DNA of 64,000 bases from Candidatus Bathyarchaeota archaeon (GCA_963832745.1 CAWHVC010000004.1:192001-256000), one strand, 5' to 3'; counted from the stretch's first letter, positions 4,658 through 18,756 are shown. A program made the numbers and translations. The notes: generated from the letters alone by a model not told the origin.

Positions 4658-4935
4658 CGCGTCAACTCCACGTCAAAAAAAGGATATCCAGTTTTTTGAT
4701 AATCCCAAAAGAAGATAATTGAGCGTGTTTATTTCTGTGTTTGCTTGGCTAATAAATTATGTTAAATAAAACGGTTTTCTGCAGTTACACTTAGGGGCAA
4801 AATGTTAATTTACTTTCCGTTCGACTGGCAATATTTCTGTATTTTAGAACGGTTTTAAGTATTATATAAGAGAAAAACAATAGATAGACCCTTGGTCTAG
4901 CAAGTTAGATAGCCTATAATTTATGGGTGCTAAAC

Positions 4936-6531
4936 ATGAACGCTGATGGCAAAAGATTCCGAGATGCAATAATCGAGTTTTTACCTGATGCCACGTTTGT
5001 CATCGATTTGGACGGTAAAGTCATTGCTTGGAACAGCGCTATGGAAATGCTAACCAGCATTCCCCGAAGCGACATGCTTGGAAAAAGCAATTACGAATAT
5101 GCCCTTCCATTCTACAAAGAACGCAGACCCATGCTGGCAAACCTAATTTTCTTGCCTCAAGTTGACTTTGAAACGAAATATGACTCTATAGAAAGAATCG
5201 GCGACGCGCTTGTTGTAGAAATTTATTTACCCGATTTTAGACCAGGCGGCGTATACCTCTGGGCTAAAGCCAGTCCACTCTATGATTCACAGGGCGAAAT
5301 CGTCGGTGCCATCGAAACAATCAGAGACATAACAGACCGGAAACGAGCAGAAGAAGAAATTATTCGATCACGCCGCAGTCTTGCAGACATTCTCAGCTTC
5401 CTTCCCGATGCCACGTTTGTCATCGATTTGGACGGTAAGGTCATTGCTTGGAACAGCGCCATGGAAATGTTAACCAGTATACCTGCAGACTCCATGCTTG
5501 GAAAAGGTGACTATGAGTACGCAATCCCATTCTATAAGAAGCGGCGACCAATGTTGGCGGACCTAGTTTTCATGCCTGAAACAGAATTAAAAGAGAAATA
5601 TAACAATGTTGAACGCAACATGGACACTCTTGTTGTCGATGTTTTTATTCCAGATTTTCGGGTGGGCGGTGCCTACTTCTGGGCTAAGGCAAGTCCCTTG
5701 TATGACCCTAACAGTGGAAATGTAGTGGGCGCAATTGAAACAATCCGGGACATAACCGAACGCCGAGAACTTGAAGGACGGCTTGCCCGTTCAAATGCCG
5801 AGCTACAGATTGCTGCAGAAATACAGAAAAGCTTTCTACCCGAGGCGATTCCTCAAATTCCAGGTTTTGATGTCGCAGCCCGCACCGTTATGGCAAAGGA
5901 AGTTGGAGGAGACTTCTTTGACGTAATCCCATATGAAGTTATGACTCTTGATAAGGGCATGCATGGCATGCTCGTCGCGGATGTATCGGGAAAAGGTGTT
6001 CCAGCAGCCCTCTTTATGGCGTTGTCAAGGATTGTTGTTCGAGTGAACGCTCTTTGGCATCATGACCCCGCGAAAGTAATTTACAGTTCCAACAACACCA
6101 TAACCCAAGATTCAAAATCCGGCATGTTCGTAACCCTCTTTTTCGGACTGCTAAACGAGACAAACCGGTCCCTTACCTATGTTAACGCTGGACACAACCC
6201 GCCGCTAGTATTCCGGAGCCATGATGGGTCAGTTGAGAAGCTCATGCCTACAGGAATCGTGCTTGGGGCAGTCGAGAATTTGGAGTATAAGTCCAGAAGC
6301 GTAAAGATTGCGGAAGGCGACGTTGTTGTCATGTTTACCGATGGCGTTACGGAATCAATCAATTCGCAGAGTGAACTGTTTGGAGAAAAGCGGCTTATAG
6401 CGGTTATTCAGAAAAACGCTGGCCTTTCGGCTCAGGGGATTCTTGAGCAGATTTTGGTTGAAGTAAACGCGTTTGCGGGAGATATGCCGCAGGCAGATGA
6501 TATCACGTTACTTATTATCAAGGGGACCTGA
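4936..6531 (+). CDS. PAS-PAS SpoIIE/RsbU-type PP2C serine phosphatase
   Basis: Two PAS repeats, coiled linker, then EVGGDFFD, ADVSGKGVPAALFM, NAGHNPP, FTDGVTE and DDIT motifs. Confidence 0.92.
   Translation: MNADGKRFRDAIIEFLPDATFVIDLDGKVIAWNSAMEMLTSIPRSDMLGKSNYEYALPFYKERRPMLANLIFLPQVDFETKYDSIERIGDALVVEIYLPDFRPGGVYLWAKASPLYDSQGEIVGAIETIRDITDRKRAEEEIIRSRRSLADILSFLPDATFVIDLDGKVIAWNSAMEMLTSIPADSMLGKGDYEYAIPFYKKRRPMLADLVFMPETELKEKYNNVERNMDTLVVDVFIPDFRVGGAYFWAKASPLYDPNSGNVVGAIETIRDITERRELEGRLARSNAELQIAAEIQKSFLPEAIPQIPGFDVAARTVMAKEVGGDFFDVIPYEVMTLDKGMHGMLVADVSGKGVPAALFMALSRIVVRVNALWHHDPAKVIYSSNNTITQDSKSGMFVTLFFGLLNETNRSLTYVNAGHNPPLVFRSHDGSVEKLMPTGIVLGAVENLEYKSRSVKIAEGDVVVMFTDGVTESINSQSELFGEKRLIAVIQKNAGLSAQGILEQILVEVNAFAGDMPQADDITLLIIKGT
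4984..5480 (+). repeat. Intragenic tandem PAS duplication (unit about 420 nt); about 75-nt near-identical cores at 4984-5060 and 5404-5480
   Basis: gatgccacgtttgtcatcgatttggacggtaa(a/g)gtcattgcttggaacagcgc(t/c)atggaaatg occurs twice, 420 nt apart. Confidence 0.9.
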
Positions 6532-6579
6532 GCCTGTTATGTCAGAAGAAAACCCTAAAAACCCTGGAAGGAGACAACC

Positions 6580-7005
6580 GTGAAAAGCTTTGAGCTTACC
6601 GTGGAGAGCAGGCTGGAAAGTCTTCCTAAGATAAGCGCGTTTATTGATGAAGCAATGCAGCACTATAACGTACAAAACGTAAAAGAAGTGTATGCAGTCC
6701 AGTTGTCGGTTGATGAAGCCTGCACTAACATAATTAAACATGCATACGCGAACAAAAGCGATGGAAAAATTGTTATTCGCTGCACGCTGTGTAAGGCACC
6801 TGACAAGTTTGTAGTGGAAATAATGGATTGGGGTTGCCCTTTTGACCCAACAACTCTGCCGACGCCTAATACGAAAAGCGGTTTGGATGAACGAAAGGAA
6901 GGCGGTTTGGGCATCTTTTTTATAAGAAAATTCATGGATGAAGTTAGCTATCGTAGAAGTGGCGATATGAATTTATTAACAATCGCCAAGTATATAAAAA
7001 AATAA
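6580..7005 (+). CDS. RsbW/SpoIIAB-like anti-sigma-type serine kinase (HATPase_c_2)
   Basis: LSVDEACTNIIKHAY (N box), DWGCPFDP (G1), GGLGIFFIRKFMDEV (G2). Confidence 0.9.
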   Translation: MKSFELTVESRLESLPKISAFIDEAMQHYNVQNVKEVYAVQLSVDEACTNIIKHAYANKSDGKIVIRCTLCKAPDKFVVEIMDWGCPFDPTTLPTPNTKSGLDERKEGGLGIFFIRKFMDEVSYRRSGDMNLLTIAKYIKK

Positions 7006-7023
7006 TTACTGGAGAAAGAATAC

Positions 7024-7359
7024 ATGGAAACAAGGACAGAAGGAAATACAACCATCGTAGTAATGGTTCCCAGATTCGACGCTTATACTGCCAATGACGT
7101 TGATACAGCATTAAAAGAGTTACTTGCGAAGGGCACCAAAAAAATAATCTGTGATTTCTCCCAAACCGATTATGTAGCCAGTGCTGGCCTTAGGGTTCTT
7201 TTGTCTTCAGCTAAAACCCTGCAAAGGCAAGGCGGCCAAATTGTTTTATGCTCAATGAAACCTTACGTTCATGAAGTTTTTGAAATATCTGGGTTTACTC
7301 AGATTTTCAAAGTTTTTGAATCTAAAGAAGAAGCCTCTAAAAGCCTCAACCAACCATAA
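7024..7359 (+). CDS. STAS-domain anti-anti-sigma factor (RsbV/SpoIIAA-like)
   Basis: DFSQTDYVASAGLRVL carrying the phosphoacceptor Ser; VFEISGF. Confidence 0.9.
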   Translation: METRTEGNTTIVVMVPRFDAYTANDVDTALKELLAKGTKKIICDFSQTDYVASAGLRVLLSSAKTLQRQGGQIVLCSMKPYVHEVFEISGFTQIFKVFESKEEASKSLNQP

Positions 7360-7380
7360 AGAGGAGAAGCAAGCAGTTAA

Positions 7381-8607
7381 ATGTCAACTATAAAGTCTGA
7401 AGCAGAACGATGCCTAAAATGCAAAGTGCCCAGCTGTTCCAAGGGTTGTCCTGTTGGAACTCCTATCCCTCAGGTTACGACAAAGTTCTTGGAAGGCAAA
7501 TTGGAAGAAGCAGGCAGGCTGCTTTTCAACAACAACCCCCTATCCGCCATAACCTCAATCGTTTGTCCGCATGACAGAAACTGCAAGGGTCACTGCATAC
7601 TAAACAAGAAAGGTCAACCGGTTGAATTCTATAAAATAGAGCAATACATCTCACGTTTCTATTTGGAAACCTTCCAGCCACCGCAGGTTGAGAGAAACGG
7701 CAAAAAAGTAGCAGTTGTAGGCGCTGGCCCAGCTGGAATAACAGCGAGCATAATTTTAGCGAAAAAGGGTTATTCAATCACTTTATTTGAGGAAATGGAC
7801 AGCATCGGTGGAGCCATGCGTTATGGCATTCCAGAGTTTAGGCTACCTAGAAGCATCTTTGAGTTTTACAGAAAAATTCTTGACTCTTTAAATGTTAAAT
7901 TCCGTCCCAACACCCAGATAGGCACCAATTTTAGCGCTGAAGACATGTTTCTTGATGGTTATGACGCTGTCCTTATTTGCACGGGCACAAACCGACCGAA
8001 CCGTTTCGGTCTTTTAGGTGAAACTTTAGGGCACGTGCATTTTGCTGTTGACTACTTGAGGTCTCCTGACGTCTATAAGCTGGGAAAGAACCTTGTGATT
8101 CTTGGAGCAGGAAACGTGGCTATGGATGCCGCAAGAACCGCCATCAGAAAGCAACACGTCGACGTTACCATTCTCAATTACAGGGCACCAGAGGATGTAA
8201 CGGCAGATAAAGCGGAAGTGGAAATGGCAATGATTGACGGCGTAAAACTGCTTCATAACTGCCAAGTCGTCCGTATCATGGATAATTCTGTCAAGTGCGT
8301 AAAAGTTGATAAAATCATCGCTGAAGACGGTTCAGTGAGTATAAAAGAGGATTTTAAATCTGCGTTTGAATTACCTGCTGAAGCTGTAATTATTGCGATC
8401 GGTCAAGGTCCCGGTTCAGACGTAGTAAGCGTCGGAGGCGCCAAAGTCACACAGAAAGGACTTTTACAGGCGGACGAGTTTGGTCAAACGTCACAAGAAG
8501 GAGTATTCGCTGCAGGAGACGTCGTTACTGGCCCTAGAACGGTAATCGAAGCCATTGCGTCCGCAAAAAAAGCATCAGAAAAAATTGAAGAATACTGTAG
8601 CAAATAA
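7381..8607 (+). CDS. GltD/SudA-like FAD/NAD(P)-dependent Fe-S oxidoreductase
   Basis: EAERCLKCKVPSCSKGCP, VCPHDRNC, GAGPAG, RYGIPEFRLP, GAGNVAMD, FAAGDVVTGP. Confidence 0.88.
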   Translation: MSTIKSEAERCLKCKVPSCSKGCPVGTPIPQVTTKFLEGKLEEAGRLLFNNNPLSAITSIVCPHDRNCKGHCILNKKGQPVEFYKIEQYISRFYLETFQPPQVERNGKKVAVVGAGPAGITASIILAKKGYSITLFEEMDSIGGAMRYGIPEFRLPRSIFEFYRKILDSLNVKFRPNTQIGTNFSAEDMFLDGYDAVLICTGTNRPNRFGLLGETLGHVHFAVDYLRSPDVYKLGKNLVILGAGNVAMDAARTAIRKQHVDVTILNYRAPEDVTADKAEVEMAMIDGVKLLHNCQVVRIMDNSVKCVKVDKIIAEDGSVSIKEDFKSAFELPAEAVIIAIGQGPGSDVVSVGGAKVTQKGLLQADEFGQTSQEGVFAAGDVVTGPRTVIEAIASAKKASEKIEEYCSK

Positions 8608-8788
8608 TTATATTCAATTAGTCGACCAGCAACTAATCTTCAAAATAAGCGTGGATAATGCTCATTTTTCCTCTAGCTTCAATCGTTACCTTTTGTTTCT
8701 TTTTTATTGTCAGGCATTAAATCGGTTAGCTGATTGACCAAAATCTTAATACAAATTAACATGTCTTTTTATCCGACTGGAATTTAAC

Positions 8789-10681
8789 ATGGAGTATGAA
8801 ATCTTTCTGCTTCTTGCAGCCATCTTGCTAATCTTCTTAGATATAGCAGTTTTTTCAAGAACTAAATTTTCTTCTAACCGCTTAAATTATGCGGGCTTTA
8901 TAGCGGCTGCATTTGCTTTCTTGTTGATATTAAGCTCTTACCTGTTGCTTTTGATTGCTTTTGTGAATAACGACTTTTCATTTGTCGGCGTCTACTCTTT
9001 TAGCTCATCAAACTTGTCCCTGTTATCAAAAATTTACGCCAGCTGGGCAGGCGCAGGTGGTTCAATGCTTTTACTAACCATAATTTTAAGCACGTTCTAT
9101 TTTGGGCTCAAAATTGCATCCTTAAAGAACACAGAGAAATTTAAAACACTAACTTGTCAGGTAATGGGTTTTGTTGTTATTGTCTTTACATTGGTATGTT
9201 TACTGAGAAACCCCTTTGAACGACTTCCAGTAGCCGCTGTTGAAGGTTTTGGGCTTAACCCTCAACTGCAGAGTGTATGGATGGCTATTCATCCTCCAAT
9301 TGTCTTTTCAGCTTACGCTTTTGTTGTACTTGCGTTTGCTTTGACAATTGCAAGTTTAAAAACCAACAAAGACATTGATACTTCAAAACTTTTCAAAGTA
9401 TCAACTTATGCTTCTTGGATGCTGCTTACTGTTGGAATAGCTTTAGGCGGTGTTTGGGCGTATGAAGTTTTAGGTTGGGGTGGATATTGGGCTTGGGATC
9501 CAGTAGAAACAGCATCACTATTACCCTGGCTTATTTTAACAGGTTACTTTATTGTAAAATCTATTACAAAAAATCTAAGTCTTACTCGGGAAACACTGAT
9601 TATGCTTACCTTTGCCAGTCTTGTTTTCCTAAGTGCCCTAACCCGTGGAGGGTTAACTCAATCTGTTCACTCGTATGCTGCCTCAGCAATTGGTCCAATA
9701 ATGCTACTGTTTGCTGTAGGTATGATGGGTTACTTTTTTTACTTGGCAAAAAGCAAAAGGAAAAGTTTCTTCAAATTAACGGTTGACAGGAAATCTTTGA
9801 CTTCCCGGTCATCTTTTGTTGGGTTTTGGGCGTTGATTTTTATTTCAATTGTGTGCTTGGTTGGGTTAGCTGTTCCGGATTTTGCTTACAGTTACTGGAC
9901 TTATCCATTTGTCTTGTTGTTTGTTATATCGTTGGTTGGTTTCAGTCTTAACGATAAAATGCATTATGCACGCCAATTCATAATCGTAACCGTAGGGTTG
10001 GTTGCTGGAGTTATTTTTACCTTGTTGGGTTTTGCTTCAGTAAATGTGCTTGTCACTTTAACTGTTCCTTTAATGGTTATAACCTTAGGTGCATTGTTCT
10101 ACAAGCTCGCAACTTCGATAAGGCGACGAACTCTTCTTTGGCAATACCTTTTCGGTATAGCAGTTGTCGTGCTGCTTTTAGGCGTATTTGTAAGTTCAGG
10201 AGCCAAAACTTCTACAACACTTCAAAATGTTAACGTTAACTCTCCAGTACATGCTTCGGACTTAACGGTAACTTTAAGCGATTTGCATGTAAGCAACAGC
10301 ACCACAAGGGTTTACAATACTCAAGTCGAAGGCGTTTTTCCTGAATATTCAATTGTTACTGCAGATGTTTCTGTTCAGGGCTCTGGTTTAAATTATAACG
10401 GTAACTTGCAAGCGGCTTTCTATCCGAATTATGGATTAGTAATTAACCCCCTAATTATCTCCACAATCACAGGTGACATTTACATTCATTTTGAATACAC
10501 TGATTCACTTTACAACTCTTTAACTCAGAATTTGATTGGACAAAGTGTACTTCCCGACAATTTAGCATTAACTATCCAAAATAATCCATTGATTTACTTG
10601 GTTTGGGCAGGTGTGATTCTCATGTTGTTGGCATTGACTGCTGAGTTTATACTTGGAAATAAACAAACAATTAGCCTTTAA
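8789..10681 (+). CDS. ccmF: Cytochrome c maturation haem lyase, CcmF family
   Basis: GLNPQLQ, IHPP, WWD motif WAYEVLGWGGYWAWDPVET, SVHSY; many TMs. Confidence 0.88.
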   Translation: MEYEIFLLLAAILLIFLDIAVFSRTKFSSNRLNYAGFIAAAFAFLLILSSYLLLLIAFVNNDFSFVGVYSFSSSNLSLLSKIYASWAGAGGSMLLLTIILSTFYFGLKIASLKNTEKFKTLTCQVMGFVVIVFTLVCLLRNPFERLPVAAVEGFGLNPQLQSVWMAIHPPIVFSAYAFVVLAFALTIASLKTNKDIDTSKLFKVSTYASWMLLTVGIALGGVWAYEVLGWGGYWAWDPVETASLLPWLILTGYFIVKSITKNLSLTRETLIMLTFASLVFLSALTRGGLTQSVHSYAASAIGPIMLLFAVGMMGYFFYLAKSKRKSFFKLTVDRKSLTSRSSFVGFWALIFISIVCLVGLAVPDFAYSYWTYPFVLLFVISLVGFSLNDKMHYARQFIIVTVGLVAGVIFTLLGFASVNVLVTLTVPLMVITLGALFYKLATSIRRRTLLWQYLFGIAVVVLLLGVFVSSGAKTSTTLQNVNVNSPVHASDLTVTLSDLHVSNSTTRVYNTQVEGVFPEYSIVTADVSVQGSGLNYNGNLQAAFYPNYGLVINPLIISTITGDIYIHFEYTDSLYNSLTQNLIGQSVLPDNLALTIQNNPLIYLVWAGVILMLLALTAEFILGNKQTISL

Positions 10682-10687
10682 TTTCTT

Positions 10688-11134
10688 TTAACCAAAGCTT
10701 AAGTGAAGCGCATAATACAGCAGCCCAAGTCCTAGAGATAACAACCAGATTGCCAATATTTTCCACATTAGCTTTTTTCTTGGAGCACAAAATTGTGTAC
10801 TGCTTGATTCATTTATTGCCCAAACCCAAACAAGCCATACGCCCAAAATTAATCCGACAGCTCCAATTACTCCATGAATTACGCCCATAGCAGCGACTAT
10901 ATTGAATGCGTTAAATGTTTCTGCGAAAGCAGAAACAAATGATGGCCCCATGTGCGAAAGTAACAGTAAAGCTGTGATTATCATAACAATAATCATTGAG
11001 TTGCCATGCCATACCGGTTTCCGTTTTTTTAATAGGTACAAGCTTAACCCTATCAAAGCTAAAGCAACAAGAAAGATGACAACGTTTGTTTCTGCCATCC
11101 ATTCGTGAACTACTTCAAATGAAACCATAAGCAA
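10688..11134 (-). CDS. DUF420-like 4-TM membrane protein (oxidase-associated)
   Basis: KKRKPVWHGNSM, HGVIG and IWLLSLGLGLLYY patterns; divergent from ccoN. Confidence 0.6.
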   Translation of the reverse strand: MLMVSFEVVHEWMAETNVVIFLVALALIGLSLYLLKKRKPVWHGNSMIIVMIITALLLLSHMGPSFVSAFAETFNAFNIVAAMGVIHGVIGAVGLILGVWLVWVWAINESSSTQFCAPRKKLMWKILAIWLLSLGLGLLYYALHLSFG

Positions 11135-11213
11135 CCCCTTTCTGCTGCTTTACCTTGTTAAATCCAGTTAATTTACTTTAAATTAGTCTTTGGCAATAGG
11201 TGCATTACTGAAA

Positions 11214-11224
11214 AGTTTTTTATA
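11214..11224 (+). promoter_or_regulatory. Probable TATA box of the cco operon
   Basis: AAAAGTTTTTTATAG about 45 nt upstream of the ccoN ATG. Confidence 0.4.
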
Positions 11225-11266
11225 GTAAGTTAGCGTTTGGTAATTAAATCTATTTTGTGGTAAGTT

Positions 11267-12697
11267 ATGTCTCAACCCCAAGACGCTAATGTAGTGGTTC
11301 CTGAAAAAATCGATTACAAAACTTCAGATTCAGTATCTAAATACTGGCTGTACTCTGCTATACTATGGTTTCCAATTTTTGCCACTTTTGGCTTCATAAT
11401 GGCAATCAAATTTTTTTATCCTACATTTCTAATCGATTCAGCTTTTGATACATTTGGAAGAATCCGGCCAGCACACGTTAACGGGTTGCTTTTTGGCTTT
11501 TTATCTTCAGGCCTTATCGGCGCCATGTATTACGTTGTTCCCCGATTAAGCCACGTATCTCTGTATAAGCCACAGATTGGAAAAATATCTGCTGTATTGT
11601 GGAATGTTGCGGTTTTAACTGGTGTGCTTCTCATTATGGGTGGGGATACTCAGGCTAGAGAATACGCCGAGATGCCTTGGATAATTGATGTTCTTGTAGT
11701 CATTACATTAATTCTAATAGGAATCACAATAATTGGAACAATACTGAAACGGAAAGAACGTAAACTTTATGTGAGTTTATGGTTTTTCGCGGCTATTTTC
11801 CTTTGGTTCCCCATAGTCTATTTCATAGGAAACGTAATGTGGAATCCTCCAACAGGTGCACTTTATGGCTTAACAGACGCCATCGTCAACTGGTTCTACG
11901 GACACAACGTGTTAGGCTTATGGTTTACTCCTTTCGGGTTAGCTTTATGGTATTACTTTATACCTAAACTTACTAAAAGAGCATTATACAGCGTAACATT
12001 ATCGTTGATTAGCTTCTTTGCATTAGCGTTTTTCTACACTGGAGTTGGCGGTCATCACTTGCTTCAATCCTCAATTCCTGAATGGCTAAAAACAATCGCT
12101 GTTGCAACAAGCGGTCTTATGATGCTTTCAGTTCTAACTTTCGCCACTAACATAGGCATGACAATGCGTGGCGCTTGGCATTCATTTTTAAGCAATGTAC
12201 CTTTAAGGTTCATTCTTTTCGGTTTTATCTGCTACATATTTGTCTCTATTCAAGGAACCTTTCAAGCACTTCGCGATATGAACCTCTACTTGCATTACTC
12301 TCAATGGACTGTAATGCATTCACATTTGGCATTATACGCATCATTCGGTATTACCATAATGGGCATAATGTTCTACGTTATCCCAAAAATTTCCGGAAAA
12401 CAGCTTTACAGCAAAAAATTGATGGATGTAACTTGGTGGGTTTCACTGCTTGGTTTTGTAATTTTCATGATGGGCATGTTACTGGCTGGATTAGTAGCTA
12501 ACGCAGGTTGGTTTACAAGTCAAACAATAGCGCAAGTTTTGCCACTGCTCCCTCCTTACTTTATTATACGAGCAATAGGCGGCGGAATAGTTGTTGTATC
12601 TGCTTTCCTGTTCGCTATTAACATTATAATGACAATTTTGTCCAAACCAACAGGTGAAGAGTTGACTAAACAAACAATGGTGGTGCAGCAGGCATGA
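11267..12697 (+). CDS. ccoN: cbb3-type (C-family) haem-copper oxidase subunit I
   Basis: FGRIRPAHVN, REYAEMPW, NWFYGHNVLGLWFTP, helix-VII FY..GGHHL, WTVMHSH: six His ligands plus the C-family Tyr. Confidence 0.9.
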   Translation: MSQPQDANVVVPEKIDYKTSDSVSKYWLYSAILWFPIFATFGFIMAIKFFYPTFLIDSAFDTFGRIRPAHVNGLLFGFLSSGLIGAMYYVVPRLSHVSLYKPQIGKISAVLWNVAVLTGVLLIMGGDTQAREYAEMPWIIDVLVVITLILIGITIIGTILKRKERKLYVSLWFFAAIFLWFPIVYFIGNVMWNPPTGALYGLTDAIVNWFYGHNVLGLWFTPFGLALWYYFIPKLTKRALYSVTLSLISFFALAFFYTGVGGHHLLQSSIPEWLKTIAVATSGLMMLSVLTFATNIGMTMRGAWHSFLSNVPLRFILFGFICYIFVSIQGTFQALRDMNLYLHYSQWTVMHSHLALYASFGITIMGIMFYVIPKISGKQLYSKKLMDVTWWVSLLGFVIFMMGMLLAGLVANAGWFTSQTIAQVLPLLPPYFIIRAIGGGIVVVSAFLFAINIIMTILSKPTGEELTKQTMVVQQA

Positions 12698-14280
12698 ATG
12701 GCTTCGAGAAAAAACTAGAAAAGAACTTTGAAAGAATAGAAAATGCTGTAACTAATCAAACAAAACATCGTAAAAAACTAAGCTTCAAAAATCTTTTCCC
12801 GTTAGTAGCTGGTGGGGTGGCTGTCTTCCTGCTTATGGTCAGCATGGTTGTAGTTGCTCCTTACATGTTCCTCTTAGATGTCCCCCCAACCGACACTGCA
12901 CACGTTTACACCACGCAAGAAGCTGAAGGCAGAAGCCTTTACATGAGTTTAGGTTGCTTCTACTGCCATTCTCAACAAGTTCGAGCCTCTGACTGGGGAC
13001 TAGGCAATGTTTCTCAAGAAGGCGACTACGTGTATGACAGCCCGAACTCTTTAGGAACAGAAAGAACTGGTCCTGACCTTGCTCAAATAGGCGGTATGCG
13101 TCCAACTGCTTGGCATCAAATGCATTATAGAGATCCAAGAAGCGTATCTCCCGGTTCAATAATGCCCAACTTTGAATTCCTAACAGACCAACAAATCGAT
13201 TCCTTAATCACCTACATACAGAACCTCGGTCAAGAAAACCTACAAGTTCAACAATCAATAACTAACGGCTCCGCCTATCACCCGGTAGTTCCTGAAGAAT
13301 ACATAAACGCAACCAACCAGTTTGAACCAATGTATCTAACCGTTTTATCACAATATGATGCAACAAATGATGTTTACAATGGCAATGCCTCACTTGCAGA
13401 TCAATGGGCTGCGATTTATGACGTTGCCAAAGCCGATTACACCCAACGATGCTTACCTTGCCATGGCTGCTCTGGAAATGCTCAGGGCCCATACGCTCGG
13501 CATGTGGTAACTCAACCCGCTAACCTGCATGAAAGAATCGCTACTTTTCCAGGTGATAACTATCATATCTGGCGAGTGAGTGAAGGTGTGCCTGGAACTG
13601 CAATGCCTGCATGGAAGCTTTCTCTAAACAGCACCGAGATTCAGTTAATCGCAATTTACGAAATGAGCTTTGTTTTTGGTTCAGCAAGAACTTTTCCAGG
13701 AAGCACCTCAGACGATGAAGGCGACAATTACGCATTGACTGTTTTGAATACGCCGCCAATAAGCGGTACTCAGCAAGATTTCCAGTCAGGACAAGACATT
13801 TTTAATTTATACTGCGCTCAATGTCACGGTTCAGATGGTCAAGGTGACGGTCCAGCATCCATCAATGTTCCTGGCGGATATATCAGCCCTGCTCCAGCCA
13901 ACTTTACAGAGTCAGGAAGCGACTTCCAATATTATGGCAGATACGTCTGGAAAGTAAAAGAAGGAGTAGAAACGACCAACATGCCACCATGGAAATACGC
14001 CTTATCAGACAACGAAATCTACCAAGCAGTCTTATACGTTCAAAGCTTTTCAACAGCACAAGATTACAATTCAAAATGGGCACCACAATACACAGACCCC
14101 TATGCAAGAAACCTCAAGATTAACGCTGCATCAAGTAGCTTCACAAGTATAGAAACTAACCCTGTTGCCGTAATAGCGGTATTGTCCGCTGCTGTGCTTT
14201 GGAATCTGCAGGTAAATCGCCAAATTTTACGAACCAAAAATTTAACCTGTTTTTTACGTTTTAGGAGGAACCTGAAGTGA
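12694..14280 (+). CDS. ccoO: CcoO subunit fused to two further c-type cytochrome domains (trihaem CcoO/P-like)
   Basis: GCFYCHSQQVR, GTERTGPDLA and PGSIMP (CcoO); extra CLPCH..TAMP and CAQCH..TNMP; N- and C-terminal TM segments; ATGA overlap with ccoN. Confidence 0.88.
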   Translation: MNGFEKKLEKNFERIENAVTNQTKHRKKLSFKNLFPLVAGGVAVFLLMVSMVVVAPYMFLLDVPPTDTAHVYTTQEAEGRSLYMSLGCFYCHSQQVRASDWGLGNVSQEGDYVYDSPNSLGTERTGPDLAQIGGMRPTAWHQMHYRDPRSVSPGSIMPNFEFLTDQQIDSLITYIQNLGQENLQVQQSITNGSAYHPVVPEEYINATNQFEPMYLTVLSQYDATNDVYNGNASLADQWAAIYDVAKADYTQRCLPCHGCSGNAQGPYARHVVTQPANLHERIATFPGDNYHIWRVSEGVPGTAMPAWKLSLNSTEIQLIAIYEMSFVFGSARTFPGSTSDDEGDNYALTVLNTPPISGTQQDFQSGQDIFNLYCAQCHGSDGQGDGPASINVPGGYISPAPANFTESGSDFQYYGRYVWKVKEGVETTNMPPWKYALSDNEIYQAVLYVQSFSTAQDYNSKWAPQYTDPYARNLKINAASSSFTSIETNPVAVIAVLSAAVLWNLQVNRQILRTKNLTCFLRFRRNLK

Positions 14281-14429
14281 ATATTGACATGTTGATATAT
14301 ACTATAGGCGCTTTTCTCATTACTCTAATAACGGCTGGTTTTGTAGTTTGGGCTTTCAAGACTAAACAGTTTGAAGCCAACGACTTTTTACGTTACATGC
14401 CACTTGAGGAGGACGCAGACGAAGAATGA
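14277..14429 (+). CDS. ccoS: CcoS/FixS-like cbb3 assembly peptide (50 aa, absent from the ORF track)
   Basis: MNIDMLIYTIGAFLITLITAGFVVWAFKTKQFEANDFLRYMPLEEDADEE; single TM then WAxxxxQF(D/E); AGGAGG SD; GTGA and ATGA overlaps on both sides. Confidence 0.72.
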   Translation: MNIDMLIYTIGAFLITLITAGFVVWAFKTKQFEANDFLRYMPLEEDADEE

Positions 14430-14716
14430 CGTGGCCATTTTACTTAACTGCATATATTGTCTATCTTGATCCAACTTACGTTTACTTTACGTTATTCTTA
14501 ATTGCAGCAGTTTCAATTGTCATCTACTTAGTTGTCAGAAGTTCGAACGATTTCTCAGTTGAAGAGACCGAAAAAAACTCTGAAGATTTTGCCGGAGAAG
14601 TTCGTGACTCAAACGGTCCAGTGACCAAATGGCTCTGGGTAGTTTATGCTGGATTAATAATTTGGGCATTAGCTTATTTGGTTCAGCATTGGAGCGAATT
14701 TGCGGTTTTCCCATAA
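14426..14716 (+). CDS. Stand-alone CcoP N-terminal-like membrane protein (no haem)
   Basis: EDFAGEVRDSNGPVTKWLWVVYAGLIIWALAYL resembles the CcoP N-terminal DGIxExxNPxPxWW helix; last gene of the cco operon. Confidence 0.55.
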   Translation: MTWPFYLTAYIVYLDPTYVYFTLFLIAAVSIVIYLVVRSSNDFSVEETEKNSEDFAGEVRDSNGPVTKWLWVVYAGLIIWALAYLVQHWSEFAVFP

Positions 14717-14808
14717 AATCTATTTTTTCAATTTCTACCTGCGCGCTTTTTTTGATTTCAGAAAACTAATAAATTGGTTTGTTACGTTACTTTCAATGGT
14801 GTCCTTGT

Positions 14809-16104
14809 TTGGTTACTGAAAAAGTTACTCGATTTTACGGCTGCCAATTAACCACTACTCATTCAGCAAAACAACATAAACTAAGCAAACTAATCGCTTG
14901 GCTTTCTGATAAAGAAGCGCCAGACCGAGAATTTATTTCTCTTTACATTCCCCCGCATATTTCAATAGAGCAAGTGGTAGCAAACATCAAAAAAGAAGCA
15001 GAATCAGCAGTTCTTGACTCAAAAAACGCTACTGACCGCCTACAAACCGCAGTAAAAAACATGCTCCAACATGTCAAAGCAAAAACTGAGTTGCCGGAAA
15101 ACGGCTTAGCCATTTTTGCAGGAACTTTCCTTGGGAATAACCAAGATAAGCCTGTTTTAAACGTGGAAGAACTTGTTCCACCTCAACCGATTGCGACGTA
15201 TCTTTGTAAGGCCGATAACCAGTTCGAGTTAGAACCACTGAGGCAAATGTTAAGAGATGAACGTATTATTGGTTTGATTTCGTTGGATTCTAAACAGGCA
15301 AGTTTTGGGTTGGTTGTAGGTGAACGTTTTGAGCCTCTGAAAAGCATTTCTTCGGGGGTTATGGGAAAAACTGGTAAGGGTGGCCAAAGCCAGAGACGCT
15401 ATGAAAGGGAACGTGACATGTCTATCGGTTTCTTTTTTCGCCGAATCGCAGAGCACGCGACAAAAGAGTTTCTTGAAAACCGCAGCATTACCTTGCTAAT
15501 AATCGGCGGGCCTGGACAAACAAAAAATGATTTTCTAAAAGGTGATTACCTAAATTACATGTTAAAAGATGCTCTTTTTGGCATGTTTGACGTTCAATCA
15601 GCAGGTCCAGAGGGCGTCAGGGAAATTTTTGAAAAATCATCTGATAGCCTAAAAAATGTTTGTTTGCCGGTTGAGCGGAAAGTTATGCAGCGGTTACAGA
15701 TTGAACTTAACAAGGATGCAGGGTTAGCCATAACCGGTTTAGACCCAGTGCTTGAAGGCTTAAAAACTGGCGAAGTTGAAGTGGCACTTGTCACGGACTC
15801 AACTGATCTGATACAAGCAGATGCTACATGCAAAAAATGTGGTTTAACAAAAAATGAACTGCTGCATAAGTCATACATTCAGGGTCTGCAGGAGTTCCTT
15901 TCAACGCCCTGTACCCGTTGCAACGCAGTGGATTTCGAGTTGGCTGAAAAAGACATCATCGACGTCTTAGAAGACTTGGCTGCACAAACAAAGGCAAGCG
16001 TTGAAGTGATATTTACAGGGTCAGACGAAAAGGCGCAGCTTACTACTCTGGGCGGATTTGCAGCTTTACTAAGATATCGCTCTAACAATGAGGGCCTAGC
16101 CTGA
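14809..16104 (+). CDS. Archaeal release factor aRF1 paralog (start uncertain)
   Basis: FISLYIPP, ENGLAIFAG, KGGQSQRRYER, GGPG.TK, Zn-ribbon CKKC..CTRC, LGGFAALLRY. Confidence 0.85.
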   Translation: MVTEKVTRFYGCQLTTTHSAKQHKLSKLIAWLSDKEAPDREFISLYIPPHISIEQVVANIKKEAESAVLDSKNATDRLQTAVKNMLQHVKAKTELPENGLAIFAGTFLGNNQDKPVLNVEELVPPQPIATYLCKADNQFELEPLRQMLRDERIIGLISLDSKQASFGLVVGERFEPLKSISSGVMGKTGKGGQSQRRYERERDMSIGFFFRRIAEHATKEFLENRSITLLIIGGPGQTKNDFLKGDYLNYMLKDALFGMFDVQSAGPEGVREIFEKSSDSLKNVCLPVERKVMQRLQIELNKDAGLAITGLDPVLEGLKTGEVEVALVTDSTDLIQADATCKKCGLTKNELLHKSYIQGLQEFLSTPCTRCNAVDFELAEKDIIDVLEDLAAQTKASVEVIFTGSDEKAQLTTLGGFAALLRYRSNNEGLA

Positions 16105-16158: not shown

Positions 16159-18756
16159 TTAGGGTTTTCTGTAGAGTAATGCGCCGACTATTGCTACAAC
16201 AACCATTACTGCTATACCCATAGCTACAATGGTCATTGTGTAGTCTGGTACCGAAATTTCCTGTTGCTGGCTTGATGGTGATGGTTGTGCTGCGCCTACC
16301 ACTACTGAAGTTGATGCGGAAGAGCTGCCGTACGAGTCGTCGCCCATAAAGGATACAATAATTTGGTAAGTTCCTTCCAAGTCTGGTGTCCAATCAATGC
16401 TGAAGGTTCCATAGTAACCGTTGGTTGTAACTTGGCCAATGTCTACTGTGTTTCCATTGGGATCAATAGCTGTGAGTATTACTTGAACGCCGTCTATTGT
16501 TTTATTATTCCAGATTCCGCCAATTGGGTACTGTAAATGCAAGTACTCCATTTGTGTCGACATTGAATCTGCAGAAACGCACGGTGTGCCTGGCTGCGCT
16601 GGTGACATGTCTAAAACAGTGCCCTTGATTACTACTCCGTTGCCTTTTGCAATTACAATATCTGGAGCGGTTACGGTGGTTTGGGTTTCGCCTTTGCCGA
16701 AAACAAATTCATAGCCGTTTCTTGAGTCAGCTGCGGCCAAGTATCCATCTGCTAAACCGCCAATTGCCATGGGGTTTGCTATTCGCCAAATTAGCTCGCC
16801 AGTTGTAGCGTTGATGCATAAAGTTCCCCAACCTCTTGTCAAGGGTTGGCTTTCAGTATGTTCAGTGTTGTATGTGTACATTTTGCCATCCACAATCTGG
16901 GCGCCAGTATTAATCGAGTATACAGTTGTTCCGTTTTTGTCTGTGTAAGGGCTTTCGTACATACTTAATGCATAGTCAACGTAATGCCAAACTATGCTAC
17001 CATCAGTCCAGTCAAAAGCGTAGACGCCGTCGTATGCTTCGCGGTATAACATGCCGTAAGCTGATTGTATAGCGTAGGCTCCGAATGCTGGCTCAGCCCA
17101 TGGGTAATCCATTGCTTCACCTTTCCACGCTAGATTGCCTGTAGCTAAATCCCACGCCATAAAGTATCCGCCCATCATCAGGACTGCCACTTTGCCATGA
17201 TCAGCTACACACACTGTCATGCTGTAGCAAGTATCTTTAACGGTTGTGTTCCAAAGTACTGCTCCAGTGTATAGATTGAAGCCTACAACGTTTGTTCCAT
17301 ACCATGCGCCGACTTCCGGGGGTGTAAGTGACGTAACTGTTGCGCCATAACCTGTTTGCCAATCTATTAATGAAGGCAAACTAGCACTCGCATATGAGGT
17401 GTTGCTTATTATTCTTGAAGTAAAGTTAGTTGATGAACCTTTTGTAGTCCAGTTAATCAGCCGATAGTTAGGGTTAGCTGCGTTGCCAGCATTTTGGACA
17501 CTTAAAACGTAGCCGTCCATCTGATTGTATAGTGTTCCACTGGTTAAAGGTGCAATTGAAGTATTGAGTGTCAAAGCGCCCGTGGCTGGATTCCATTTGT
17601 ATAGACGACCGTTGCTTATTGTTAGCAACTCTATTGAGTAAGTTCCTACGGCTGCTGCTCCAGGTACTTCTAAGTTGCCACTTTGCGTGTAAACTATTGT
17701 GTTTGGCACTAAAGCAGTTGTGAACATCATTCCAAACATTGAAGCTGTCGTTGTTGCTGCAGGCTGTTCAAAGTAGACTTCTCCAGTGCGTAGATCACTA
17801 CATCGCCAATATGTTGCCCCGTTTTCTCCAGGTTTAGTATAACTGTCATAAACTTTTCCTGCATAAATCAAGTTAATGCTGCCGGGGCTGCTGGTTGTGG
17901 CTAAATTACCTGCTGGTCCACCGATTAAGCCTGCTATTGTATCTGAACGCTTCCAGACTATGTGCCCAGTTTCTGGTCCTTGAACCCATGGATGAAAATT
18001 GTATTGTGCACTCCACATTGGATTGGTGTCTGGGTAAAGCATGTCCCACATTGGACCGCCACCTTGATAGCCTGTGCCTGGATAGTTGCCAAGTATTGGC
18101 CACCATTCTCTATTTTCTAGTGCTACGGGTCTTGTCCAATAGTCTGTTGGTAATGGTGATTCAGGCCATGGCCAAACTGGGTCTTCTTGTACTGTTAGGG
18201 TTTGTTCTGCAGTTGAGCTTGGTTCGTAGTAGCAATCTCCGTTGAAGCTTACATAGCCTGAACCGAAAACTGCTCCTGGGTCTGCTGTGTAGTTTCCTGC
18301 CGGGAAGTATCCGCCTGGGAATTCAAATTTAAGTTTCCATTCACCGAGTTGGTCTGGTGCAAATTCAAACCAAGCGGTAGTGTCAGCTTCATAAGAATCC
18401 ATCACTCTTACGTCTGTGTGTCCTTGGGGGTCTGTGATTGTCACTTTGTAATCTGACATGTATCGGCTAACATGTGTTGCTGGGTTAAGCCAAACGTTGA
18501 CTAGGACTGTTTGGCCTTTGCCGACTGGGTTTGGTCTAAAGCTTAGAAACGCGTGAGTTTCAATGGTTACGTCTGGAGTTATGCCTGATGCTAAGGGTCC
18601 TGGTATTGAACCGCCTTCTTGCAAGTTTGTTGGTGTAACGCCGGGTGGTAAAAAGGTTGATTGTGCTTGTGCTGGCGTTAACATTGCTATGGAGGAAATG
18701 ATGAGAATTGCGGTGATAATCATTGAAAAGGTTGCTTTTTTGATAATTTTCTGCAT
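16159..18756 (-). CDS. Secreted PQQ-like beta-propeller surface protein with C-terminal TM anchor
   Basis: Signal peptide, repeated (D/N)xxTGxxxW motifs, Ig-like ends, Ser/Gln linker and C-terminal TM ending LYRKP. Confidence 0.8.
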   Translation of the reverse strand: MQKIIKKATFSMIITAILIISSIAMLTPAQAQSTFLPPGVTPTNLQEGGSIPGPLASGITPDVTIETHAFLSFRPNPVGKGQTVLVNVWLNPATHVSRYMSDYKVTITDPQGHTDVRVMDSYEADTTAWFEFAPDQLGEWKLKFEFPGGYFPAGNYTADPGAVFGSGYVSFNGDCYYEPSSTAEQTLTVQEDPVWPWPESPLPTDYWTRPVALENREWWPILGNYPGTGYQGGGPMWDMLYPDTNPMWSAQYNFHPWVQGPETGHIVWKRSDTIAGLIGGPAGNLATTSSPGSINLIYAGKVYDSYTKPGENGATYWRCSDLRTGEVYFEQPAATTTASMFGMMFTTALVPNTIVYTQSGNLEVPGAAAVGTYSIELLTISNGRLYKWNPATGALTLNTSIAPLTSGTLYNQMDGYVLSVQNAGNAANPNYRLINWTTKGSSTNFTSRIISNTSYASASLPSLIDWQTGYGATVTSLTPPEVGAWYGTNVVGFNLYTGAVLWNTTVKDTCYSMTVCVADHGKVAVLMMGGYFMAWDLATGNLAWKGEAMDYPWAEPAFGAYAIQSAYGMLYREAYDGVYAFDWTDGSIVWHYVDYALSMYESPYTDKNGTTVYSINTGAQIVDGKMYTYNTEHTESQPLTRGWGTLCINATTGELIWRIANPMAIGGLADGYLAAADSRNGYEFVFGKGETQTTVTAPDIVIAKGNGVVIKGTVLDMSPAQPGTPCVSADSMSTQMEYLHLQYPIGGIWNNKTIDGVQVILTAIDPNGNTVDIGQVTTNGYYGTFSIDWTPDLEGTYQIIVSFMGDDSYGSSSASTSVVVGAAQPSPSSQQQEISVPDYTMTIVAMGIAVMVVVAIVGALLYRKP

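Follow-up and report, generated by a model that had tools for sequence, protein, structure and literature searches.

Among Bathyarchaeia, a microoxic life of Bathy-6 has been argued from pyruvate oxidase and superoxide dismutase (SOD) by Pan et al. 2020 (PMC7110647), in the main text of which the word "cytochrome" is absent, and Sulfolobus-like cytochrome c oxidases and a (micro)aerobic life are described for the soil genus Houtuousia in the accessible part of Hou et al. 2023 (PMC10321748); the available sections of a 2025 review (PMC12694404) make the same points. In the portion of Dataset S6 of Murali et al. 2024 (PMC11214002) that could be consulted, C = 1 is given for a Methanoperedens and a Thermoplasmatota genome, and of two of its 127 Bathyarchaeia rows one is all zero and one has A = 1. 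No cbb3-type oxidase assigned to Bathyarchaeia was found in the accessible text of the literature, including PMC7565565, PMC5264521, PMC13502194, PMC10386581 and PMC8280799. Such an assignment is proposed here for a six-gene locus in a 64,000-nucleotide stretch (the window; CAWHVC010000004.1:192001-256000, contig C4) of a genome titled Candidatus Bathyarchaeota archaeon (GCA_963832745.1, hereafter G000; 3.02 Mb, 5 contigs, 99.0% complete, 4.3% contamination). It is considered likely that the six genes form a functional cassette, kept by selection, that would build and mature a C-family (cbb3-type), presumably high-affinity O2 reductase in Bathyarchaeia possessing the Wood-Ljungdahl pathway, for O2 removal or opportunistic electron disposal.

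The catalytic subunit

Solved cbb3 CcoN chains match the catalytic subunit with 230 bits, compared with 38.9 bits for NorB and about 41 bits for ba3, and in the tree described below, with NorB as outgroup, the protein lies inside the diversity of CcoN, at roughly 33-36% identity to proteobacterial CcoN. Both results agree with the C-family assignment made in a preliminary description of the locus. Counting positions along the HMMER alignment to Pseudomonas stutzeri CcoN (3mk7_A), H70, H213, H263/H264, H351 and H353 correspond to H60, H207, H257/H258, H345 and H347, and Y257 corresponds to Y251. Going by P. stutzeri, the six histidines are taken to be two ligands of low-spin haem b, one of haem b3 and three of CuB, and Y257 presumably occupies the position of the helix-VII active-site tyrosine, able to cross-link to a CuB histidine. 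All of these residues are invariant in 13 of 13 Bathyarchaeia copies, so that the intact ligand set reported earlier for the window copy extends to its relatives. Residues aligned with T215, Y223, S240 and Y317 of P. stutzeri, which we take to be of the K-channel type, are also kept. Q329 (window positions 12251-12253), invariant as Gln in the 13 copies, aligns with E323 of P. stutzeri, presumably the glutamate discussed in proton handling of cbb3 oxidases.

Judged from sequence, CcoN is predicted to be a C-family O2-reductase-type enzyme rather than a nitric oxide reductase (NOR). Membership of the NOR or "N2O red" families was considered and ruled out by the active-site tyrosine, which both lack according to the accessible text of Murali et al. 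2024 (PMC11214002).

Organization of the cassette

The open reading frame (ORF) list places all six genes where the preliminary description had drawn them (Table 1). Each of the last four genes overlaps its neighbour by 4 nucleotides, which indicates that they are translationally coupled, also as previously proposed. An TTTAAAAATTTT-like box recurs in several of eight aligned loci within the intergenic region.

Table 1 Features of the oxidase cassette (positions in the window).
Feature	Position	Strand	Length	Evidence
CcmF/NrfE-like haem lyase (putative)	8789-10681	+	630 aa	Cytochrom_C_asm 104.6 bits (Pfam)
DUF420/CtaM(YozB)-like four-helix membrane protein	10688-11134	-	148 aa	weak DUF420 match, 21.8 bits vs cut-off 30.5
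Divergent intergenic region, AT-rich, presumed promoter region	11135-11266	strandless		
CcoN, predicted catalytic subunit I	11267-12697	+	476 aa	COX1 264.8 bits
CcoO domain fused to two cytochrome-c domains (CcoP-like; "CcoOP")	12694-14280	+	528 aa	FixO 122 bits
CcoS(FixS)-like single-helix protein	14277-14429	+	50 aa	
Stand-alone FixP_N piece, corresponding to CcoP membrane helices	14426-14716	+	96 aa	FixP_N 20.0 bits vs cut-off 24.9
Entire cassette as insertion/deletion unit	8611-14762	strandless		blastn of flanks vs G080

Across 14 Bathyarchaeia loci, nothing beyond the six cassette genes is shared and the flanks differ, in keeping with a locus that had been called self-contained. The accessory genes are kept in every Bathyarchaeia locus with sufficient sequence. 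The position of the DUF420-like gene varies: it mostly lies between ccmF and ccoN, upstream of ccmF in one locus (L014), and downstream of the last gene in two (L044/L090). Within the genus, C-type CcoN (PF00115, 262-270 bits) is encoded by 7 of 61 genomes (G000, G001, G014, G015, G022, G062 and G078). Precisely the same seven genomes, and none of the remaining 54, carry a long CcmF-like gene; CcoN was not found in any of 24 genomes representing 11 further families of the order. CdhC of the Wood-Ljungdahl pathway is found in 51 of the 61 genomes, all seven carriers included; together with the titles of the nearest loci, this agrees with the earlier view of the host as a Bathyarchaeia archaeon with an anaerobic core.

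CcoOP begins with a membrane anchor and has CxxCH motifs at residues 88, 253 and 374, the three motifs previously noted for the locus. Besides FixO, Pfam recognizes Cytochrome_CBB3 (82 bits in two stretches), and solved CcoO chains are matched with 82-86 bits. The CcoO monohaem and CcoP dihaem domains are thus both present in a rearranged form, with the haem domains fused and FixP_N separate. No other ORF in the whole of G000 has three CxxCH motifs; one, UvrA, has two, and 41 have a single motif, of which one was inspected. For the separate FixP_N protein (PF14715), 13 of 13 homologues match at E <= 0.01 (best 2e-6), 30 columns of the family alignment are invariant, and the acidic loop residues E46 and E49 are kept. 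A separate FixP_N ORF also follows the fused oxidases of sister clades.

The 50-aa protein is recognized more clearly in its relatives: the window copy shows a weak FixQ match and no FixS (PF03597) match at E <= 0.01, whereas among 12 homologues FixQ is found in eight and FixS in six (best 2.6e-8). Its positional equivalent in a sister clade scores 39.3 bits for FixS against a cut-off of 23.1, and hhalign aligns the family profile with the FixS-scoring sister-clade ORF at a probability of 96.6%. These comparisons support the label CcoS given earlier, at the level of the family; the protein could still be a CcoQ.

The label DUF420 (PF04238) was only partly upheld. Four of 13 homologues of the 148-aa protein match at E <= 0.01, while the window protein itself stays below the cut-off, and membership is weak. 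H43, H61 and H87 are invariant, and JGI names 10 of 120 listed relatives YozB (DUF420). An A-type oxidase cassette in another genome of the genus (G012) contains a DUF420-like gene (29.2 bits) in the same divergent position, 26% identical and with an hhalign probability of 94%. This DUF420/CtaM-like protein is a probable oxidase assembly factor. A complex prediction of CcoN with it (13 rows each) gave a score of 0.00 against a mark of 0.32, which speaks neither for nor against binding.

Proposed function, haem supply and electron donor

The catalytic activity, the part of each accessory protein and the physiological role can be pictured as follows. CcoN would carry a low-spin haem b and a haem b3-CuB centre with a His-Tyr cofactor and would reduce O2 to water; its electrons would arrive by way of the CcoO-dihaem fusion, whose three c-haems would lie on the outer face. 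The membrane helices that normally come from CcoP would be supplied by the separate FixP_N protein, the CcoS-like and DUF420-like proteins might aid the loading of haem and copper into CcoN, and the CcmF-like protein would attach haem to the three CxxCH sites of CcoOP. The most likely use would be the consumption of trace O2, protecting O2-sensitive enzymes, with opportunistic electron disposal and some proton-motive gain as a possible addition.

For haem, the genes hemA, hemL, hemB, hemC and hemD, one for a uroporphyrinogen methyltransferase (sirA) and a SirC-like one are present in G000, alongside an ahbA-ahbB-ahbC-ahbD-like cluster in which AhbA (153 bits) and AhbB (164 bits) lie above their cut-offs and the AhbC-like (551 bits) and AhbD-like (428 bits) proteins below. 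A P1B-type ATPase is encoded 3.5 kb from this cluster.

Several points weigh against the proposed function. The products assigned to ccoN (TIGR00780, 275.8 bits vs an equivalog cut-off of 583), ccoO (109.6 vs 200.65), ccoP (57.1 vs 179.95) and CcmF/NrfE all remain below the NCBIfam cut-offs, which marks them as a divergent branch rather than canonical equivalogs, and we know of no studied member of this branch of cbb3 oxidases. The best AhbD-type gene (at least 390 bits) is present in only two of the seven cassette genomes (G000 and G014); presence of AhbD and of the cassette are not correlated, top-tier AhbD-like genes occurring in about 22 of the 61 genomes, and this radical-SAM family is too paralogous for further interpretation. 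CcmE (PF03100) is found in none of the 61 genomes, G000 included, with the control detected in Methanosarcina acetivorans. G000 also has no CcmC-sized WWD protein and no true CcmB, its sole "CcmB" match being a DrrB-type permease; the search for maturation genes covered CcmB, CcmC and CcmE, with CcmH and ResB not searched. The passage of haem across the membrane therefore lacks any recognized export or chaperone route. Finally, no cytochrome b, no NrfD or alternative complex III (ACIII) and no plastocyanin-type cupredoxin were found in this 99%-complete genome. Its five Rieske proteins are of a small, soluble type, and among four UbiA-family genes there is no MenA/UbiA equivalog and no clear quinone prenyltransferase. 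The missing electron donor is the weakest point of the functional account. The preliminary description had noted that bc1 and ACIII are absent from the window, and in the entire genome neither was found, nor was a bd oxidase. It had further suggested a genome search for haem synthesis, for bc/ACIII and for quinone synthesis: haem genes were recovered, with neither bc/ACIII nor evident quinone synthesis.

An unusual CcmF

The cassette CcmF aligns over its full length with the CcmF/NrfE models of NCBIfam and scores 128 bits against Thermus thermophilus CcmF (6zmq_A). The WWD motif and both external histidines (H168 as P-His1, H294 as P-His2) are kept, and both transmembrane (TM) histidines, in CcmF the ligands of the accessory b-haem, are gone, with I255 at TM-His1 and G456 at TM-His2. 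Positions were related to E. coli CcmF, in which H173, H261, H303 and H491, confirmed as histidines in the K-12 record, are taken to be P-His1, TM-His1, P-His2 and TM-His2, a four-histidine scheme that the accessible text of PMC10663686 bears out. In a MAFFT alignment of 86 proteins, all 16 distinct Bathyarchaeia cassette CcmFs have P-His1, P-His2 and an invariant WWD motif. TM-His1 is replaced by I, L, V or Y in all 16, and TM-His2, kept in one, is G, A, S, T or Y in the other 15. The 70 references (E. coli, one anaerobic methanotrophic archaeon of the ANME-1 group and 68 proteins from bacterial metagenome-assembled genomes (MAGs)) have all four histidines without exception.

A library-wide search returned 6143 CcmF relatives, and 115 of the best 150 (at least 560 aa) were aligned with E. 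coli and the window protein. Of these 117 rows, 108 have all four histidines, one reads HHRH and eight lack TM-His1, seven of them TM-His2 as well; the eight are the window protein and seven representatives, among which P0123, P0125, P0138, P0153, P0155 and P0167 are more distant. A genome scan with an alignment of P0138, P0153, P0155 and P0167 retrieved only Bathyarchaeia cassette loci and ordinary four-His CcmFs. Such ordinary CcmFs are also found in other Bathyarchaeia (L210, L211), with no ccoN nearby, and in another (L123/L217) ccmA and ccmB adjoin a split CcmF. Two Bathyarchaeia cassettes show variants of the gene, namely a CcmF-like ORF of 1176 aa, i.e. fused to something else (L015:1875-5405), and a second CcmF-like ORF after the cassette (L012:8031-9500).

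The explanation favoured for this residue pattern is that the b-haem was lost when CcmE was lost, the protein now serving a single substrate. There is about an even chance that the cassette CcmF does not stand alone, and that it either relies on unrecognized partners (for instance an exporter or chaperone of haem that is non-homologous to the known ones) or on the mini-WWD protein described below, or has a function other than haem attachment. In every CcmF studied, haem is received from holo-CcmE, and Methanosarcina requires the archaeal CcmABCEF set (PMC9084895, in its available part). The CcmF channel is moreover described as occluded in the consulted text of PMC10663686, and W230, the first Trp of WWD, is retained in the cassette protein. 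Set against such partners, CcmE is missing from all 61 genomes, the mini-WWD gene occurs in only three of the seven cassette genomes (G000, G014 and G078), and no further gene is conserved next to the cassette in 14 loci. More tentatively, the CcmF derivative could represent a new, minimal route of cytochrome c maturation, in which a single membrane protein operates without b-haem, CcmE or CcmABC and is dedicated to the three-haem CcoOP. If this were true, six genes would suffice for an O2 reductase in an anaerobic archaeon, given host haem b, and the minimum required for a c-type cytochrome would become directly testable with a CcmF that has neither b-haem ligands nor CcmE. A limited search of the accessible literature returned no description of a CcmF without TM histidines or without CcmE.

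An attempt to place the channel-occluding residues W214 and W251 of CcmF in the 6zmq_A alignment was abandoned, as position 214 is Arg by count and the numbering did not match; position 251 of 6zmq_A is the first WWD Trp, aligned with W230.

The only matches to PF01578 in G000 are the cassette CcmF and a 134-aa mini-WWD protein with HPP and WWD motifs (Cytochrom_C_asm 73.5 bits; L096:6243-7684, i.e. C3:172243-173683 of G000). Its gene is translationally coupled to that of a 346-aa signal-anchored protein that has one CxxCH motif (residue 32), a linker rich in Pro and Thr and a C-terminal helix. The pair may represent a further surface cytochrome, with a single haem, and a very small haem-handling protein dedicated to it. 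Mini-WWD genes of similar type occur in 11 of the 61 genomes.

Alternative roles of the oxidase

The preliminary description had interpreted the locus as serving microaerobic respiration or the scavenging of O2 or NO. The O2-reductase type was supported by the present comparisons and O2 removal is the favoured use, while a respiratory donor was not found and a role in NO reduction is disfavoured. A stronger version of the respiratory interpretation would place the cassette at the end of a complete microaerobic chain that conserves energy, running from a Nuo/Fpo-like complex through a membrane carrier and an unrecognized carrier:cytochrome-c oxidoreductase, and would make the hosts true facultative microaerobes. 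This seems unlikely. It could draw on an 11-subunit Nuo/Fpo-like cluster in G000 (C1:123.5-133.5 kb; A, B, CD, H, I, J, K, L, M and N homologues), on the K-channel-type residues that we take to be kept in CcoN, on the acids E46 and E49 of the FixP_N loop, and on haem-copper oxidases in 17 of the 61 genomes. A-type oxidases (PF00115 430-451 bits, or fragments) account for 11 of these genomes, one of which (G015) has both types; oxidases are thus not rare in this genus, a point that the preliminary description had not foreseen. No complex III, ACIII, cupredoxin or other c-type cytochrome carrier was found for such a chain, quinone synthesis is not evident, and the O2-sensitive CdhC is retained.

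An Mbh/Mrp-like cluster is also present in G000. The NuoL-like gene of the Nuo/Fpo-like cluster is spread over two or three overlapping ORFs (L110:8370-10303, i.e. C1:128370-130303), with Proton_antipo_M positions 1-143 and 141-285 in separate frames, an arrangement that may reflect a frameshift, a mistake in assembly or a gene that is genuinely divided. The cluster is preceded, 1 kb upstream, by a phage-tail-sheath-like gene (L110:1554-2633).

That the enzyme mainly reduces NO or another small oxidant for detoxification is very improbable: C-family oxidases reduce NO in vitro at high concentration, according to the accessible text of Murali et al. 2024 (PMC11214002), and the clade is found in anaerobes, but the active site, with its tyrosine and three CuB histidines, is of the O2-reductase type, NORs and "N2O red" lack the tyrosine, and the match to NorB is weak.

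Continuing with O2 removal as the preferred use, a cbb3-type cassette combined with the Wood-Ljungdahl pathway offers a concrete and testable mechanism for the reported microoxic tolerance of Bathyarchaeia, which in the accessible literature has hitherto been argued from SOD and pyruvate oxidase (Pan et al. 2020) or, in another genus, from Sulfolobus-like oxidases (Hou et al. 2023). It bears on how abundant archaea of sediments and soils cope with traces of O2.

Host genome and selection

In tetranucleotide distance the locus ranks at the 57th percentile among 1001 6-kb windows taken from G000, and the continuity check suggested earlier thus returned a native composition. The closest CcoN loci in the species-representative collection are 16 records titled Bathyarchaeota, Bathyarchaeia or "uncultured archaeon" with 74-89% identity, some on contigs of 1.5-2.9 Mb, and one genome (G014) is a single closed contig. 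Archaeal or anaerobe-like genes in the window include archaeal LonB, diphthamide synthase, IorA/B-like, Fer4+CCG (HdrBC-like) and HycI proteins, matching the context previously described (HdrBC, IorAB, a hydrogenase protease and archaeal core genes). The flanks (7300-8610 and 14763-16085) are collinear with G080 at 75.7% and 77.9% nucleotide identity (blastn). Separated by 6152 bp in G000, they are only 127 bp apart in G080, a genome without an oxidase and without a CcmF-like gene. The cassette is therefore a discrete 6.15-kb presence/absence unit relative to G080. A search for terminal repeats gave only chance-level matches of 14-16 nucleotides around the cassette, with none at its borders.

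Comparison of the window with four other copies gave dN (nonsynonymous substitutions per site) of 0.11-0.38 for the six genes, while in all 24 pairs dS (the synonymous counterpart) was either saturated or no lower than 1.75; dN/dS was 0.055-0.19 in the six pairs for which it could be computed. For the ccmF-like gene, dN was 0.27-0.32 with saturated dS. Low dN combined with saturated dS indicates six real genes under purifying selection and copies that are old. Methionyl-tRNA synthetase (MetRS) identity to G000 is 79-86% in five cassette genomes, and CcoN identity is 75-87% in four of these. The rank orders differ (G022: MetRS 85%, CcoN 75%; G015: MetRS 79%, CcoN 85%), and this single marker gives no decision between loss and transfer within the genus.

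It is extremely improbable that the locus represents acquired DNA that is silent or in decay, or misbinned or misassembled bacterial DNA: its patchy distribution, the many bacteria among its nearest relatives outside Bathyarchaeia and the contamination estimate for G000 might suggest so, but the composition is typical of the genome, the archaeal flanking genes are collinear with a relative, the cassette stands on closed or megabase archaeal contigs, and six ORFs are intact in 14 loci under purifying selection. Native composition, archaeal loci on large contigs and collinear flanks exclude bacterial mis-assembly for practical purposes.

Origin of the oxidase

The CcoN tree was a quick LG+G4 reconstruction of 76 sequences with Shimodaira-Hasegawa-like approximate likelihood ratio test (SH-aLRT) support only. 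It comprised 72 of 80 loci (those in which 380 or more residues of the CcoN ORF could be aligned), together with the window and three plasmid references, i.e. Chelatococcus NorB as outgroup, Paracoccus CcoN and a Ralstonia cbb3-like protein. The 13 Bathyarchaeia rows are monophyletic (SH-aLRT 100). They are adjoined by a clade of 18 rows from Dehalococcoidia, Clostridia, Syntrophales, Actinomycetota and one MAG titled Methanolobus (support 96), with ten Methanoperedens rows next (support 98). A 32-row clade of Anaerolineae and Actinomycetes lies separately, as do the two proteobacterial references; since the references attach by long branches, the deep order of the tree is unreliable. In an approximately unbiased (AU) test, a clade uniting Bathyarchaeia and Methanoperedens was not rejected (p = 0.56), the constrained tree being 4.4 log-likelihood units better, so that a bacterial and an archaeal (Methanoperedens) source are not told apart.

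In the two neighbouring clades, each of the 28 oxidases is one continuous polypeptide (879-956 aa) that carries three CxxCH motifs. The 13 Bathyarchaeia CcoNs, by comparison, have 472-498 aa and no CxxCH, and are followed by a separate CcoO-c-c gene with a 4-nucleotide overlap at the N/O boundary. This split would be secondary if the Bathyarchaeia clade is nested among fused forms, as in the quick tree, an order that the AU test leaves open. The cassette looks like a mosaic, in which the oxidase would come from the clade of fused anaerobe enzymes and would have been split secondarily, the CcmF has archaeal proteins as the nearest full-length relatives found outside the cassette, and the DUF420 gene is common to the A-type cassettes of the genus. 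Of the earlier proposal of a horizontally acquired module, the discrete indel relative to G080 and the differing neighbourhoods are supportive, while native composition, saturated dS and the open source are not.

Neighbouring genes

The eRF1-family gene beside the cassette (14779-16104) is a variable paralogue; a second copy, 34% identical, is located at C3:317156-318397, and its type is present in nearly all genomes of the genus. In several relatives (e.g. G019, G030, G061, G062, G071, G078 and G082) orthologues of the window type have one in-frame TAA. The window-type gene also adjoins the cassette in G078 and L014, on the opposite side. Just upstream of the cassette flank (4927-7359), a PAS-PAS-SpoIIE phosphatase (Pfam) is followed by 141-aa and 111-aa ORFs that by eye resemble an RsbW-type kinase and a STAS anti-anti-sigma protein; if these labels hold, this would be a partner-switching module in an archaeon. 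The gene downstream (16159-18756) encodes a secreted protein of 865 aa that combines a PQQ-like beta-propeller with an Ig-like domain and is anchored at its C terminus. In G022 a relative with 32% identity is the immediate neighbour of the cassette (L013/L093), and a paralogue is found near the Mbh-like cluster (L111:2799-5327).

Comparison with known systems

With the canonical cbb3 oxidase CcoNOQP (P. stutzeri 3MK7/5DJQ; Paracoccus ccoNOQP operon, L204), the cassette shares the six histidines and helix-VII tyrosine, a CcoO-type monohaem domain, two further c-haem domains and a CcoS-like small protein. Unlike that system, it has the CcoP haem domains fused to CcoO and the membrane part as a separate 96-aa protein, lacks ccoGHI nearby, resides in an archaeal host and brings its own haem lyase and DUF420 gene. 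The nearest clade, with 49-57% identity, consists of the fused CcoN-CcoO-dihaem-c oxidases of Methanoperedens, Dehalococcoidia, Clostridia and Syntrophales (NF011053/NF011054, "putative bifunctional cbb3-type ..."), which have three CxxCH motifs and the same order of oxidase, CcoS-like ORF and FixP_N ORF. In the loci examined they have no adjoining ccmF or DUF420 gene, and weak ccmF-like fragments (28-49% identity) lie at some distance in four. The NORs (cNOR and qNOR) and "N2O red" likewise belong to the C-branch and have a cytochrome-c-type second subunit, and differ, as far as the accessible text of PMC11214002 goes, in lacking the tyrosine of CcoN; cNOR and qNOR are further defined by an FeB site that contains Glu.

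Like the System I CcmFs of E. coli, T. thermophilus (6ZMQ) and Methanosarcina (CcmABCEF), the cassette protein has the full-length architecture, WWD, P-His1 and P-His2; unlike them, it has both TM histidines replaced, and CcmE, CcmC and CcmB were not found in its genome. Its set of ligands is thereby similar to that of CcmC, a protein that "is lacking these TM histidines" according to the available portion of PMC10663686. A CcmF that has neither b-haem ligands nor CcmE, and the mosaic build of the cassette, are what appears to be new here.

The A-type (Cox/Sox-like) cassettes of Houtuousia (PMC10321748, accessible part) and of G012 (L206) are likewise Bathyarchaeia oxidases with a divergent upstream DUF420 gene and a patchy distribution. 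The G012 cassette encodes COX1 (439 bits) with COX2, COX3 and COX4, and two cupredoxins and a UbiA-type gene within it; the order at L206:4310-10193 (contig C11 of G012) is DUF420 (divergent), cupredoxin, COX2, COX1, COX3, COX4_pro, cupredoxin and UbiA-type gene. Identity of the present locus with the published Houtuousia case was considered and ruled out, since the oxidase is of another family and CdhC is retained: the accessible text of PMC10321748 describes Houtuousia as having neither the Wood-Ljungdahl pathway nor pyruvate:ferredoxin oxidoreductase (PFOR), whereas all seven genomes with the cbb3-type cassette encode CdhC.

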